From the IMG/VR virus record IMGVR_UViG_2713896799_000014, positions 1 to 40,878 of that record: a stretch of DNA of 40,878 nt; one strand, given 5' to 3'. Below are positions 2,545 through 8,118 of the stretch, piece after piece. A program made the translations under genes and the position numbers. The notes beneath the pieces were generated by a model that did no database searches, was not told where the DNA came from, and saw nothing but the letters and a program-made list of their open reading frames with translations. Source of the DNA: a virus (taxonomy: Duplodnaviria > Heunggongvirae > Uroviricota > Caudoviricetes). Position 1 is the stretch's first letter. Every line of letters begins with the position of its first letter.

Positions 2545-4503
2545 TTAACCTATTTTTGTGTAGGTCCAATTAAAAGTGCCTGTGCCCTGGCTTGTAATGG
2601 TTACAATTCTCCCTGTTGCTGAAAAACTAAGAAATGCTGCTATTTTTAACGCAACAAGAATTAGCTTATCTCCATCATACATTGCCAGTTGTGTAGATGC
2701 GTAATTTTCTCCGCTTCCAGCCCCCCATACGCTAATAATGTAAGTACCTTGCGAATCTGGTATAGAGAAAAGTGTTGTCGGAGTATTTTCAGCCACAGCA
2801 GTAGAGCCTTTACTGGTAGAGAAGCATGATGTTTGCAATCCTTCCTTAGATGTTATTTGTGAATAACCATCTACGATAAGTCCTGTTTTTTTAGGGCAGT
2901 CATACCATGATACATCACCAGTACTTAGCGTACTTAAAACAGGAGTTCCTGTAGTGGTTGCTCTGAACCGGCTATTAAAGACACTTATTTTAGCTGTGTC
3001 TATTGCATGTAACATAATGGGATACCCAGACCCAGTATATGCAACTGTGTTGTTGTCAGATAAATCATCTTCTGATGACTCAATTTTAACATCGCTGCTA
3101 CCTGACGCCCTGATGTAGGAAACTACACCAGCATCACTTGGCGCAACACTTCGCATGCTGTTCTGATGTGCAGTCAGGCCAGAAATGCCACCACTACTAT
3201 TTTCGAAATGGAATAGTGCTGCCTCTCCATAACCATCTGTAGAGATGGTGTTACCCTCCGCATCAAAACCAATAATGTTAAAACTATGTGTGTTAAGAAC
3301 ATGAACGCCAGCCCCACCAAGCGAACCTGCGTTTAACGAAATATTTGATCCATCCATGGCACAGTTAATCATTGTAGCTGCAAAGACAGAACCAAACTGA
3401 TATGGTGATATACATCCAGATGTATAACATCTTTCCATCAGAATGGTAGTGCCAGTTCCTTTTGTAAAACCATTATGGCAGTTTCTGGCCCACACATTCG
3501 TAAGTTTTGTCAAGTATGTGCCAGTCTGATCATTAAAGCATGACCATGCACCATGAACTGTACAGTTTTTAATTTCAGACATTTCCAAGCTTGTTGAATT
3601 TGGAATTGTCGAGTAGAAATTAAATGCAATTTTCCCACCATCATTTTCAGGATTCGTTGGTGTGGTTCCTGGATCATAGAAAATATAAAGACCATCAATA
3701 AAAATCTGAATCATTTTTGTCGATAGGGAATCACCTTGATCTAAAGCAAAGGCTGAAATATTACCAATAATAGACATAAATGATTGCGCTCTATTTATTG
3801 TATCAGTTCCCTCTCCAACAATCCTAACGGAGTTTTTCAGAAAAATAGTTGAATTATAGTAACCAGTTCCCTTTGGAATAAGCACTGTTTTCCCCGTGTT
3901 ACATGCGGACTGAAGCGCAGCATAATCAACAGATTGAGATAGAGATGAAACAAATGGATATACCATCTGAGCGGCTGATAGTGTTGAAAATATCTCGCTT
4001 AAAGGGTGAAGCGTTCCGTCAATTGTAGCGCCAAAATCAATAACACTTATAGCCTGTGAATTTTTAATGTGCTGTGAAATAGAAGTAGCACCAGTGTACG
4101 GTTGTTTAACTGTAACTAATGCATCCCCCATTCCATCAGCATCGCTTTCTAACTGCTGCTTAAACTGATCAGGGTCATACTTCAGCACATTAGGGAAATA
4201 GAACTGCTGCGCACCATACGCATCGTACACAGCCATAGAATGACCTTGCACAGTTACGAACTTGGCAATCTGTCCATTATATACCGGGTAACCAGCAGCG
4301 TTAATGATGATTGGTTGCGATACAGGAACGTGAGAACCGTCTTCATTCTCCACATAAACCTGAATCCGGTTTTCAGGATTTACCGGGTCAGTGTCAATTT
4401 TTCCGATATAAATTTCTCCATTGGCTACGGCTTTAAAAGAACGCGCCATAGTGAAAAGTTGCGAAGGCATCGATACGATCACATTGGCTGTAATGTCTGT
4501 CAT
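2545..4503 (-). CDS. Tailspike protein (P22 gp9-like N-terminal head-binding domain, divergent receptor-binding domain)
   Basis: N-terminus [29 protein letters not shown] matches P22 gp9 head-binding domain; remainder differs from P22 endorhamnosidase. Confidence 0.85.
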
Positions 4504-4603: not shown

Positions 4604-5506
4604 TCAGTAGTTATGTACTGAAGGAGGTAATTCTTTATTCTTAAGTCTCATCCATGCGGAAAGATTCGTTGGTCCGTCTGGCTCATTAATATCAACATCT
4701 CGTGTGTGATTGATTAAAACGTCTCTCGCCATTCCGATAACATACGAGAATTCATGACCGTAGTCGTAGCATCTGCCGGAATAGTTCGATTGAATTTGTT
4801 TTAATGCCGGATACAGTTCGCGGAATAATGCCTGTGAACGGTTAGCATAATCCCATAGCCATACAAGGCTGTTTGCTTCTTTTGCAGAAAGCTCGTTGGT
4901 TTTCTTCTCTTGTTTGCCAATGAACTCACCTTCAAGCACCACCCTGTGGATGTACTCTACGGCTTGCGGTATCTGAGATGCATCAAGCTCTTCAATACTT
5001 TCCACATTGAAACGCTGATGAATCATTGCATAAGCTTCTGGGTACATTAGATGCTTTTTGCTGACCAGCATATTTACAGCATCACGAAGCGGAGTCCTGT
5101 CATCAACAGATGTTTTCTTACGTGCATTTTCTGCCTTTCCCTTTGTCCAGTAGTCATGCAGCACAGTAAAGCATTCTTCCTGGTACTGAATCAGTTTATC
5201 GCGGATGTCAGCACGAACTTTCTCAGGGTTGATGCTGAACAGCCATCCATTTAACTTCTTCAAAGGAAGGCAGAGTAGCTTACGAAGCTTTCCATCAGCA
5301 GCAACCATATTCATATGAATACAGTTGAACTTATCTAGTTGTTTCATAAGTTTTTGTTGCTGAGTACCCCAGCTCATTCCGAGGTTTTCAACGATTGGCT
5401 TCATCGCAACATATGCAACTCCGGCAGCCATGGCGGTGATAATTTGCTGACCGTTGAATGGCACGTAAGAGGTGTTCACTGCTTCTAAAATTGCTATACT
5501 ATTCAT
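4604..5506 (-). CDS. ant: Antirepressor Ant (P22 immI)
   Basis: 300 aa from [12 protein letters not shown] with GGAGA 6 nt upstream; positional and sequence similarity to P22 Ant. Confidence 0.8.
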
Positions 5507-5568
5507 GTTGGTTTTTCTCCAAGGATTTACCGACAACCGAAGCCCTGACTGTTACCGCAGTTGGGGCT

Positions 5569-5793
5569 TCAACTTTTCACTTCTTTAAAGTGCCTACCTT
5601 CTACAGTTGCTCTGAGATAAAAATTCTTATCTTTACCGTTTAGTGCTTCCCAAGCATCAACAATGCACTTATTACAGATGTGGACTTCTCGATAACCAAT
5701 AGCTTTCCTGTCAATATTAGTGAACATAACAGCTTCTTTATCTGTCAATGTGGATGCATGACAGAAGTCGCAATCTATATAAGATACCTTCAT
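5569..5793 (-). CDS. Small Cys4 zinc-ribbon protein, unknown function, inserted between arc and ant
   Basis: 74-aa ORF with CDFC...CNKC; start ATG overlaps arc stop (ATGA); not part of canonical P22 immI. Confidence 0.45.
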   Translation of the reverse strand: MKVSYIDCDFCHASTLTDKEAVMFTNIDRKAIGYREVHICNKCIVDAWEALNGKDKNFYLRATVEGRHFKEVKS

Positions 5794-5948
5794 ACCGTTA
5801 TCCCCTCTCTCTTCAGGCTGTCCATCACTCGCTTGTAAATCTCAGAGTTAACAGATCGCCCGTTCTCTTCCGCCACCTTACGCACCAAATCCAATACTTC
5901 TTTAGGCCACCGCAAATTGAACTGCGGCATTTTGCTCATTCCTTTCAT
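5790..5948 (-). CDS. arc: Arc repressor (ribbon-helix-helix)
   Basis: MKGMSKMPQFNLRWPKEVLDLVRKVAEENGRSVNSEIY matches P22 Arc from memory. Confidence 0.9.
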   Translation of the reverse strand: MKGMSKMPQFNLRWPKEVLDLVRKVAEENGRSVNSEIYKRVMDSLKREGITV

Positions 5949-6038
5949 ATTCACCTCACAATATAGGTCCACCGTGGACCTATTGAGAATATAGTAGAGT
6001 GCTTCTATCATGTCAATACACTAACTTGGGGTGATGGC

Positions 6039-6293
6039 ATGGCTAGAGACGATCCGCACTTTAACTTCCGTATGCCTTTGGAAGTAAGAGAAAAATTGAA
6101 ATTAAGAGCAGAGGCTAACGGAAGGTCAATGAACTCTGAGTTATTACAAATCGTTCAGGATGCTCTCTCAAAGCCATCATCAATTGTAGGCTATCGAGAC
6201 GAAGCTGAGCGAGTCGCGGATGAGCAATCTGACGTTGTTAAGAAGATGGTCTTTGAAACGCTGAAAAATATTTATAGCAAAAGTAAGTTATAG
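6039..6293 (+). CDS. mnt: Mnt repressor (ribbon-helix-helix), divergent from arc-ant
   Basis: MARDDPHFNFRMPLEVREKLKLRAEANGRSMNSELLQIVQDAL matches P22 Mnt from memory. Confidence 0.9.
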   Translation: MARDDPHFNFRMPLEVREKLKLRAEANGRSMNSELLQIVQDALSKPSSIVGYRDEAERVADEQSDVVKKMVFETLKNIYSKSKL

Positions 6294-6342: not shown

Positions 6343-7062
6343 ATGAAAAAAAGCAATGGACTCACATTAAAACTTGACGGAACCACCCCTGGCCAGCTGT
6401 CAATGGCTAAGTTGGTCAAGTATATGTCTGCTCTCGTAGATCTATACGGTTCTGCAGATTCTGTTCACTTCGACTGTGTAAGTGAAGGATCGGCTGACTT
6501 AAATGCATGGGTCGATAATGATATTTGTTATAACGCTGTCATAGCAAGGGCCTCTCTCTCAGCCAAAGAGAAATCACCCGCGTATCAAAAAATTGTTAAT
6601 TTACTGGAACATGATGGTTTTTCAGCGAAACTACTCGGACGAAACCACTCAACCATTATCGCATTCCCGCGAGTAAAAAAGGAGCCAATCCCTTTACTCA
6701 TAACAAAAACGTCAGAAGTTCAAGGAAGGCTATACAGTGTTGGTGGAAAAGACAACTCAATACCTGTGCGTATTGAGGGAGCCAACGGTGAAACATTCAA
6801 GTGCGAGGCAACCCCTGATTTGGCGGCAGCTCTTGGGTCCCATCTATTCAAATATATTAGGGTTAAAGGAGATGGGTGCTGGGAAAAAAAGAACAACAAA
6901 TGGGAGCTAAAGAAACTAAAAATAACTTCATTTGTATTGCTCAAAAAATCATCACTCAAGGATGCTATTAATGCTATCAAGCAAGTTCCTGGAGATCAGT
7001 GGTCCGAGGAACGCGATGTTGATTCAATCCTTAGGACTCTGAGGAAGATAAATTGCGAGTAA
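6343..7062 (+). CDS. Hypothetical protein, 239 aa; first gene of mnt-linked moron cassette
   Basis: Long ORF on mnt strand in an AT-rich stretch; no family recognised by eye; stop overlaps next ORF start. Confidence 0.6.
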   Translation: MKKSNGLTLKLDGTTPGQLSMAKLVKYMSALVDLYGSADSVHFDCVSEGSADLNAWVDNDICYNAVIARASLSAKEKSPAYQKIVNLLEHDGFSAKLLGRNHSTIIAFPRVKKEPIPLLITKTSEVQGRLYSVGGKDNSIPVRIEGANGETFKCEATPDLAAALGSHLFKYIRVKGDGCWEKKNNKWELKKLKITSFVLLKKSSLKDAINAIKQVPGDQWSEERDVDSILRTLRKINCE

Positions 7063-7601
7063 TTTTAGATACCAATATTCTGGTATACCTACTATCAGAT
7101 ATAGAACACGATTATAGATTATCTGACCCTATACTTGGTTCTGAGATTCCAGATGCCAAAAGAAGAGCAGAAGCTCTTGTTGATCGAATAGATAACAAGA
7201 ACGGGACAATCATCGTTCCAACTCCTGTATTGGCGGAGTTTTTAGTTGGAATCCATAAAGATTACCAACAAGAAAAACTAAATGTTATCAAATCGTTATC
7301 GTGCTTCGAGACTGTATCATTTGATGAGTTGGCTGCTATTGAATGCGCATCGATACCAACATTAAAAGAATTAAGGAAAATTAGCACAGAAGGTACAGCA
7401 AATAAAATTAAGTTTGACAGACAAATAATAGCAATTGCAAGAGCAATTAATGCTGACGAGGTATGGACTCATGATAAGGGAGTGTTTGAGCGTTGCAAAA
7501 GTCTCAATATTCCTGTGTTCACATTGTCATCAATAGAACCAATTCCGGTTCAAAGTCTCATGGAGTTCTTACACGATTCAGACGATCAGAGATTACACTA
7601 A
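7053..7601 (+). CDS. PIN-domain nuclease-like protein (TTG start)
   Basis: N-terminal ILDTNIL motif with acidic residues at about 6, 62, 122, 141; GAGGAAG 5 nt before TTG; 10-nt overlap with upstream ORF. Confidence 0.6.
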   Translation: MRVILDTNILVYLLSDIEHDYRLSDPILGSEIPDAKRRAEALVDRIDNKNGTIIVPTPVLAEFLVGIHKDYQQEKLNVIKSLSCFETVSFDELAAIECASIPTLKELRKISTEGTANKIKFDRQIIAIARAINADEVWTHDKGVFERCKSLNIPVFTLSSIEPIPVQSLMEFLHDSDDQRLH

Positions 7602-7728
7602 AATATAATTTTTATGCATCCGTGATAATTACATCCGTCACGGATACATAAAGCTATAGCCAAAAGTGGACAAACCTTTATCTCACTCCAAACCATCTGG
7701 TATCCTGCGTAAAACTAAGGAGGTTGGT

Positions 7729-8118
7729 GTGAAGCAATTTCTTGCTGCTATGTTCTTATTCATATCTTTTGGGGCTACAGCAGAGTGCTGGGTCGTTGGA
7801 GATATGCGCGGAATAAGCTATTCAGAACGAAATAATTTCCATCCGGAAGAAGATGGTTTTAGTGGAACATTCATCATTAAGACAAGCGGTGAAGATGCCA
7901 GCATCACATATTCTGGGACAGATGCGGGCGGCATGGCTTACAAAGCATTGTCTAAAAACTCCATCATAGGAATCGGCGCGAATGGCGAAACTCAACGCGT
8001 TATCGACTCATGGGTAATACATCCTACTGGAACAGTTTTAATGTCAAAAACCATTTCCGGTTATGGAAATATGGATTCAACCAAAGCTTTTGTTGGAAAA
8101 GTAAAAAGAAAATGTTAG
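7729..8118 (+). CDS. Small secreted/periplasmic protein, unknown function
   Basis: GTG start preceded by AAGGAGG; N-terminal signal peptide KQFLAAMFLFISFGATA then mature ECWVVGD; the track's upstream start has no RBS. Confidence 0.5.
   Translation: MKQFLAAMFLFISFGATAECWVVGDMRGISYSERNNFHPEEDGFSGTFIIKTSGEDASITYSGTDAGGMAYKALSKNSIIGIGANGETQRVIDSWVIHPTGTVLMSKTISGYGNMDSTKAFVGKVKRKC

Follow-up and report, generated by a model that had tools for sequence, protein, structure and literature searches.

The immI region of phage P22 is a textbook regulatory circuit made up of the Arc and Mnt repressors, the sar antisense RNA, and the Ant antirepressor. In P22, the promoter Pant is active early in infection until Arc turns it off, and in lysogens it is repressed by Mnt; sar blocks the ribosome site of ant. 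A related arrangement is found in the immI operon of phage P1 (c4-icd-ant1/2), where the icd gene of about 73 amino acids (aa) lies immediately 5' of the antirepressor gene and is under antisense RNA control; the antisense RNA acts at icd, and translation of ant depends on icd. The interdependence of c4, icd, and ant in P1 is named in the title of a 1994 paper by Heinrich et al. Here we analyzed the immI region of IMG/VR virus record IMGVR_UViG_2713896799_000014 over a stretch of 40,878 nucleotides (positions 1 to 40,878, the window), in which a 74-aa gene with four cysteines, called orf74 in this study, lies between arc and ant (5569..5793, minus strand). The gene is already annotated (RefSeq WP_000868958.1, 'hypothetical protein') and is inside a region known to be hypervariable, which has been called the 'ant moron' (PMC2629481). 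What our analysis adds is the cassette slot with fixed boundaries that orf74 occupies, and the apparent enrichment of this slot for proteins resembling the zinc-binding domain (ZBD), a docking domain, of the host unfoldase ClpX.

The listing of open reading frames (ORFs) gave orf74 an ATG start and the translation MKVSYIDCDFCHASTLTDKEAVMFTNIDRKAIGYREVHICNKCIVDAWEALNGKDKNFYLRATVEGRHFKEVKS, with cysteines at C8/C11 (CDFC) and C40/C43 (CNKC), and thus confirmed the Cys4 ORF that had been predicted at this position. It follows a P22-type arc gene of 52 aa (5790..5948, minus strand; Pfam Arc, 95 bits). The orf74 start codon (5793..5791) lies on the arc stop codon (5792..5790), and the two genes have four nucleotides in common (ATGA, 5790..5793, minus strand), as the original prediction had stated. 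It had also proposed an upstream ribosome-binding site, and a Shine-Dalgarno-like run, GAGGGG (5802..5807, minus strand), is indeed present within the arc codons R-E-G, 9-14 nucleotides 5' of the ATG. This distance is somewhat long and still plausibly usable as a ribosome site, and the run is kept as part of the DSLKREG junction (the common Arc end described below) in related loci. At the other end, the TGA of orf74 (5571..5569) falls exactly at the base of the sar terminator stem, GAAGCCCC...GGGGCTTC. Rfam places sar (RF00262, 97.4 bits; gathering score 43) at 5507..5574 on the plus strand, so that the last sense codon and the stop codon of orf74 are complementary to the 3' end of sar.

We aligned the region with P22 (NC_002371). 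The two were nearly identical across Pant and arc up to codon 48, and then the window carried a net insertion of 221 nucleotides. Identity restarted at AAAGTTGAAGCCCC, which is the annotated sar terminator, and extended across sar and the ribosome site of ant into the beginning of that gene. The insertion swaps the C-terminus of Arc from ..EGRIGA to ..EGITV (ESFKKEGRIGA in P22 and DSLKREGITV in the window). The last arc codons are the left boundary of the slot and the sar terminator stem is its right boundary. All elements of a P22-type immI operon were found in the window, namely divergent Pant and Pmnt, the arc and mnt operators, arc, sar, ant, and mnt, and the identity to P22 was about 95% over the aligned flanks, which include the compared 5' part of ant. 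In contrast to the window, P22 has no ORF between arc and the sar terminator, in agreement with the statement in the original prediction that P22 arc is followed directly by ant. In the phage collection, 52 records including P22 matched, all of them in the flanks only, in two pieces with 59-61% query coverage, and a tblastn search with orf74 against 50,697 phage records gave nothing at E <= 1.

The gene orf74 is genuine and under purifying selection in its own frame. A word-indexed search of 5.8 billion proteins gave only 7 clusters, and 15 when a profile was used as the query; an exhaustive HMMER search of 1.84 billion representatives gave five. Named members of the family are all from E. coli, Salmonella, or Citrobacter, and family members share 42-99% identity with the window protein. 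C8, C11, C40, and C43 are invariant in all full-length relatives down to 42% identity, and the full set of invariant or near-invariant residues in full-length members is M1, S4, Y5, C8, D9, F10, C11, S14, T15, N26, I39, C40, C43, R67, F69, and K73. Ratios of nonsynonymous to synonymous substitution (dN/dS, Nei-Gojobori) between pairs of homologues were 0.08-0.37. When the window gene was compared with the copy at locus L008, the proportion of synonymous differences (pS) was 0.515 and that of nonsynonymous differences (pN) was 0.088. In a six-frame test, pN/pS was 0.27 in the orf74 frame and 0.53-1.06 in the other five. The length is kept at 74-75 aa among homologues, as is the start overlap, and of 5,426 complete E. 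coli genomes, 23 carry orf74 with 100% nucleotide identity.

The gene order was the same in every retrieved locus (L002-L012, L014-L020, and L024-L031, about 18 of them sequence-distinct): a divergent mnt, arc, an ORF with the 4-nucleotide overlap, the sar terminator, ant, and the tailspike gene. These loci sit between gene 16 and the tailspike gene of a P22-like prophage. Copies of orf74 were always within arc-ant, with no copy elsewhere among the retrieved loci, and one copy (P0007) is frameshifted. This comparison of immI regions across P22-like prophages found the orf74 frame conserved. The overlap is ATGA in the window and ATGA or GTGA at all other loci; L008 and L031 have a GTG start and hence GTGA, and gene callers had shortened the L008-type protein to 52 aa. 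This NTGA arrangement suggests termination-reinitiation coupling between arc and orf74, as had been predicted, and since the overlap is kept in every locus seen, orf74 should be made whenever Pant is active. Searches of NCBIfam, PADLOC, and PHROGs with orf74 gave no significant match. When PDB sequences were searched with the family profile, endothelin-1 (E 0.79) was the sole match and is attributed to chance, and the one match in a scan of genome contigs, from a Terracidiphilus metagenome-assembled genome, was inside a 373-aa protein unlike the orf74 family and was rejected as chance.

The interval between arc and the sar terminator is a position with fixed boundaries for alternative small cargo genes, of which orf74 is one. 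When the 601-nucleotide region was compared with E. coli genomes by megablast, there were 23 full matches and 700 partial ones. In two of the partially matching loci, arc is 99.6% identical, including the ITV stop, and is followed by different small ORFs. One encodes an 89-aa protein (L021, 2758-3027; phrog_27312, also in phage EC.P3) whose N-terminal part has a hydrophobic run resembling a membrane helix, and the other a 73-aa protein (L022, 2758-2979; phrog_11805, also in phages Emek and 611R6). Both ORFs begin on the arc stop and finish in TGAAGCCCC; the 89-aa cargo was found in 14 complete E. coli genomes and the 73-aa cargo in 51. IMG/VR was then scanned for the codons of the common Arc end DSLKREG, which gave 87 loci (among them L032-L111). 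All 87 carry an ORF overlapping the arc stop, 66 as ATGA and 21 as GTGA, and the predicted coupling arrangement thus extends to all of them.

Nine types of small ORF (57-89 aa) fill the slot, each running from the arc stop to TGAAGCCCC: a 57-aa type in 21 loci (phrog_17642), a 67-aa type (c67, phrog_7150) that is intact in 13 loci and frameshifted in 11, the 73-aa type (phrog_11805) in 15, the 89-aa type (phrog_27312) in 12, orf74 itself in six (no PHROG), an 80-aa type in three, a 60-aa type (c60) in three, a 63-aa type (c63) in two, and a 71-aa type (c71) in one. The other types share their boundaries and similar size with orf74, whereas the 57-, 73-, 80-, and 89-aa types have no sequence relation to it. 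Five of the nine (orf74, c60, c63, c67, and c71) are Cys4 proteins resembling the ClpX ZBD, with C-x-F-C-G as the first knuckle. c60 passes the Pfam zf-C4_ClpX threshold (42.2 bits) and reached 98% hhalign probability against ClpX. c63 and c67 are related to each other (96.6%), and both match phrog_5259, which is also matched by the ClpX ZBD and c60. c71 is distantly homologous to orf74 (hhalign 96%), with 43% identity in the finger region. Many natural versions of the P22 immI region thus carry an extra gene arranged for coupling to arc, with at least nine alternatives, and the annotation of this operon should change. In the literature that we searched, neither a gene between arc and ant nor the slot or its cargo was described.

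Several other observations were made at the slot. In 11 IMG/VR loci (e.g. L033), a 1-nucleotide length difference cuts the 67-aa cargo to 10 codons (MSKECCFLRH), which is either a pseudogenized lineage or a recurrent sequencing error. In phage CUS-3 (L119, CP000711 6505-6986), the 482 bp between mnt and ant are labelled only 'bsq2; boundary sequence'. The 67-aa Cys4 cargo is encoded there (100% tblastn match), and, judged by position, an arc gene is presumably present as well; CUS-3 has been stated to lack arc (PMC2629481). Three different Arc types (P22-like MKGMSK.., MEKEVSKILV.., and MIVKSDAPKY..) end in DSLKREG plus three hydrophobic residues when cargo follows. From its sequence, this common Arc end (5790..5820 in the window) looks like a recombination linker that also provides the GAGGGG ribosome site. 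We also considered whether the ..ITV and ..VVV ends of Arc are ClpX-type degrons tied to the ZBD-like cargo, and rejected this, since the same Arc end occurs with cargo that is not a zinc finger.

In searches with orf74 itself, no curated family reached threshold, and the best match was again the ClpX ZBD. Pfam zf-C4_ClpX (PF06689) was the top match for all 15 members of the orf74 family, each time below threshold (best E 0.00077). Profile comparison of orf74 with the N-terminus of E. coli ClpX by hhalign gave 93.7% probability; both knuckles align with a 10-residue insertion between them, CDFCHAST of orf74 with CSFCGKSQ of ClpX and RKAIGYREVHICNKCIVDA with RKLIAGPSVYICDECVDLC. In 200 shuffles of ClpX with the cysteines fixed, the score was 13.2 +/- 3.1 (maximum 24.4), while real ClpX scored 38.6. 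Among control sequences entered by hand, three ClpX N-termini (E. coli, B. subtilis, and Caulobacter) gave 93-95% and scores of 37-39, whereas DksA, YacG, Ogr, Com, MqsA, and TraR gave 0.2-3.5% and scores of 9-16. At the level of sequence profiles, the similarity is therefore specific to ClpX ZBDs and reaches past the cysteine positions.

The structural model was compatible with this resemblance. With 7 close sequences, the AlphaFold2 model was unusable (predicted local distance difference test, pLDDT, 40), and the 15-sequence alignment was required to obtain a model of moderate confidence (pLDDT 72, predicted template modelling score 0.59). Its strands are at residues 23-26, 38-40, and, towards the C-terminus, 69-73, and its helix at 41-52 starts with the second CxxC. 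The model superposes on the ClpX ZBD with 1.9 A over 41 residues, and its best fold matches are treble-clef protein-binding domains (ZZ, RING, and ClpX ZBD); a Foldseek search of BFVD gave nothing significant (best E 0.3). The original prediction had called the protein a zinc ribbon, in which both knuckles would be on beta-hairpins with no ligand helix. This label is probably wrong, because C40/C43 are at the N-terminus of the predicted helix, and orf74 matches treble-clef fingers best in both sequence and fold, specifically the ClpX ZBD.

Like the N-terminal ZBD of ClpX (PF06689; PDB 1OVX, 2DS5), orf74 has the Cys4 CxxC...CxxC arrangement, the motifs C-x-F-C...(R)K-x-(I/L)-x-G...(H/Y)-I-C-x-x-C-(I/V), and a second knuckle predicted to lie at a helix start. 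The equivalent of ClpX Phe16 is also kept: F10 of orf74, present in every full-length member, aligns with Phe16. In ClpX, this residue belongs to the hydrophobic pocket that TF, SspB, and RssB use, and its mutation abolishes TF stimulation (PMC7804408). Unlike ClpX, orf74 stands alone without an AAA+ module, and residues 53-74 form a 22-residue C-terminal tail with the conserved R67, F69, and K73. Two points weigh against the relationship. The window protein scored 18.9 bits against PF06689 (E = 0.0015), under the gathering threshold of 27, with only the second half of the profile aligned. Moreover, C11 and C40 are separated by 28 residues, 10 more than the 18 of ClpX and more than the canonical spacing of about 18-19, while the sister type c71 has 24. 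Because of the score and the spacing, we do not file orf74 as a member of PF06689. On balance, residues ~5-52 of orf74 are probably a treble-clef finger of the ClpX-ZBD kind and not a zinc ribbon, as the profiles and the model indicate.

The orf74 gene is a real cargo gene in the Pant operon of a P22-like E. coli prophage, and we hold with moderate confidence that it encodes an early accessory protein-binding zinc finger, perhaps a decoy of the ClpX N-domain. It would be translated through coupling to arc, and the protein would be made in the early Pant burst after infection, or on failure of Mnt repression, alongside Arc and Ant. Arc and Mnt would shut it off and sar would not, since the target of sar is the ant ribosome site downstream; in stable lysogens orf74 would be silent. 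The protein is predicted to bind one zinc via C8, C11, C40, and C43 and to fold as a treble-clef protein- or peptide-binding module, probably dimeric. As a free mimic of the ClpX ZBD, it could bind the adaptor or substrate tails or degrons that dock on the ClpX N-domain, or alternatively pair with the ClpX ZBD itself. Either route would alter the ClpXP-dependent turnover of a phage or host protein in an early, pro-lytic or anti-immunity phase. This mimicry, suggested by the sequence resemblance and the model, is speculative, and we regard it as possible rather than probable. In any case orf74 would not be an obligatory partner of Ant, but one of several cargo genes swapped at the slot via recombination in the conserved flanks.

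Free-standing proteins of this kind may not be confined to the slot. The N-terminal domain of E. coli ClpX matches phrog_5259, phrog_6797, and phrog_12435 (E = 8e-23 to 6e-7), two of which have no assigned function and one of which is labelled 'protease'. These are small phage proteins (profile lengths 65-107), each consisting largely of a ClpX-type finger, and they are matched by c60, c63, and c67, whereas orf74 has no significant match to them. Free-standing ClpX-ZBD-like proteins thus seem recurrent in phages. A broader view is that the slot is enriched for ClpX-ZBD mimics that form an unrecognized class of early phage proteins reprogramming the substrate choice of ClpXP; we consider this doubtful. 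During an attack on the cell or on the immunity of a resident prophage, such mimics might shield the phage replication initiator, Ant, or some other factor from degradation, or keep adaptors from delivering substrates. The slot also highlights a group of compact phage proteins expressed early. If the resemblance to ClpX is functional, these proteins would be phage modulators of a central host protease and could provide probes or inhibitors of adaptor docking on ClpX, with a bearing on the choice between lysis and lysogeny in temperate phages and on their fights with other prophages. If it is non-functional, orf74 is just another small accessory gene in a known hypervariable region.

Among the other explanations, the strongest is that orf74 is arms-race cargo unrelated to ClpX, that is, an early zinc-stabilized binder acting against host or prophage defence, exclusion, or immunity, or excluding competitors, for which the fold is a mere scaffold. 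Nine unrelated or highly diverged types with identical boundaries are typical of diversifying accessory loci. The operon has a known offensive role, as Ant inactivates repressors, and its expression is early and transient. The alleles also reassort freely, and immI has been described as a variable 'ant moron' (PMC2629481). However, no PADLOC model matched orf74, no known anti-defence family was found in Pfam, PHROGs, or NCBIfam, and the recurrence of ZBD-like proteins in five of the nine cargo types would be left unexplained. Nor can orf74 be a classical defence gene of lysogenic conversion, because Mnt represses Pant and the gene is silent in a stable lysogen. We regard this explanation as tenable but somewhat unlikely.

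A second alternative, which corresponds to the suggestion in the original prediction that the protein could modulate Ant, is that orf74 serves specifically to modulate the antirepressor circuit. By binding Ant (as a chaperone, inhibitor, or specificity factor), Arc, or a repressor, it would tune induction or superinfection. The strict location of the ORF in arc-ant, where it is arranged for co-translation with Arc just 5' of ant, would fit such a role, and so would the presence of icd before ant in P1. P1 icd is likewise a small ORF directly before the antirepressor gene in an antisense-controlled operon, but here sar acts 3' of orf74, directly at the ant ribosome site. As to homology with Icd, the tblastn search of the 50,697 phage records with orf74 gave no match at E <= 1, and the presence of P1 among these records is unconfirmed. 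Three results stand against the idea. First, sar and the 5' region of ant are nearly identical in P22, which lacks the ORF. Second, the pairwise identities of Arc, the ORF, and the N- and C-terminal parts of Ant (Ant-N and Ant-C) across eight loci do not co-vary. The window and L014 share 83% in Arc, 49% in the ORF, 48% in Ant-N, and 95% in Ant-C; L002 and L008 share 96% in Arc, 88% in the ORF, and 19% in Ant-N; and L002 and L020 share 96% in Arc, 42% in the ORF, and 81% in Ant-N. ORFs of the orf74 family occur beside Ant proteins whose N-domain belongs either to the Pfam family P22_AR_N or to KilA-N. Third, unrelated cargo takes the place of orf74 beside an arc gene that is 99.6% identical. 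The uncoupled alleles and the P22 comparison argue against an obligatory, co-evolving partnership with Ant, and we judge a dedicated modulator to be improbable. A looser interaction is still compatible with the data, and a host target is a possible reading that we prefer to modulation of Ant. Our literature searches found no link between ClpXP and P22 Ant.

A much less likely reading makes orf74 a zinc-finger regulator that binds nucleic acids, in the manner of P2 Ogr or Mu Com, and serves as a transcription or translation factor for phage late genes or ant mRNA. Small Cys4 proteins of phages, in the range of about 60-75 aa, frequently have such a function, and the gene adjoins an RNA-regulated ribosome site. 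However, hhalign probabilities were only 0.2-0.3% for Ogr and Com and 0.3-3.5% for TraR, DksA, YacG, and MqsA; orf74 had no Pfam match at E <= 1 to the Ogr/Delta, Com, TraR/DksA, or MqsA families; the protein is near neutral (12 K/R and 11 D/E); and its fold matches are protein-binding domains. Finally, a non-functional remnant frame carried with a recombination junction is scarcely credible: the ORF is absent from most P22-like phages and frameshifted copies occur (P0007 and the 11 of the c67 type), but the frame-specific purifying selection, the invariant cysteines and other residues at 42-99% identity, and the kept length and start overlap all contradict it.

The remaining elements of the immI region in the window are arranged as in P22. 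The Pant promoter (5988..6016, minus strand) has the sequence TTGACA-17-TATATT, with 11 of 12 consensus matches, and drives arc-orf74-ant. The divergent Pmnt promoter (5983..6011, plus strand) overlaps it, and the arc and mnt operators are also located here by identity with P22. The putative Psar promoter (5472..5500, plus strand) is in the first ant codons, its position being transferred from the annotated P22 feature. ant (4604..5506, minus strand) encodes a 300-aa antirepressor with P22_AR_N and P22_AR_C domains, and mnt (6039..6293, plus strand), the repressor of Pant in lysogens, encodes Arc and Repressor_Mnt domains. A promoter-like site inside orf74 (5758..5785, plus strand) had 9 of 12 matches, which is at chance level, and was disregarded.

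Beyond immI, a 239-aa ORF lies 3' of mnt on the same strand (6343..7062, plus strand; no Pfam or PADLOC match) and overlaps a gene for a 182-aa PIN-domain protein (7053..7601, plus strand; Pfam PIN, E = 4e-10). The pair sits where P22 has orf59a and, further on, sieA (PMC2629481). It recurs in other E. coli prophages (WP_000749484.1, WP_001263856.1) and could be a module that lysogens express, of the toxin-antitoxin or defence kind. A 150-aa ORF (7666..8118, plus strand) that starts with GTG and is hydrophobic around residue 25 lies between the PIN gene and the homologue of gene 16; no Pfam or PADLOC match was found for it. On the other side of immI, the tailspike gene (2545..4503, minus strand) has a P22-type N-terminal head-binding sequence and a receptor-binding part unlike that of P22, and in the related loci at least five different tailspike C-terminal domains occur beside the same immI module.
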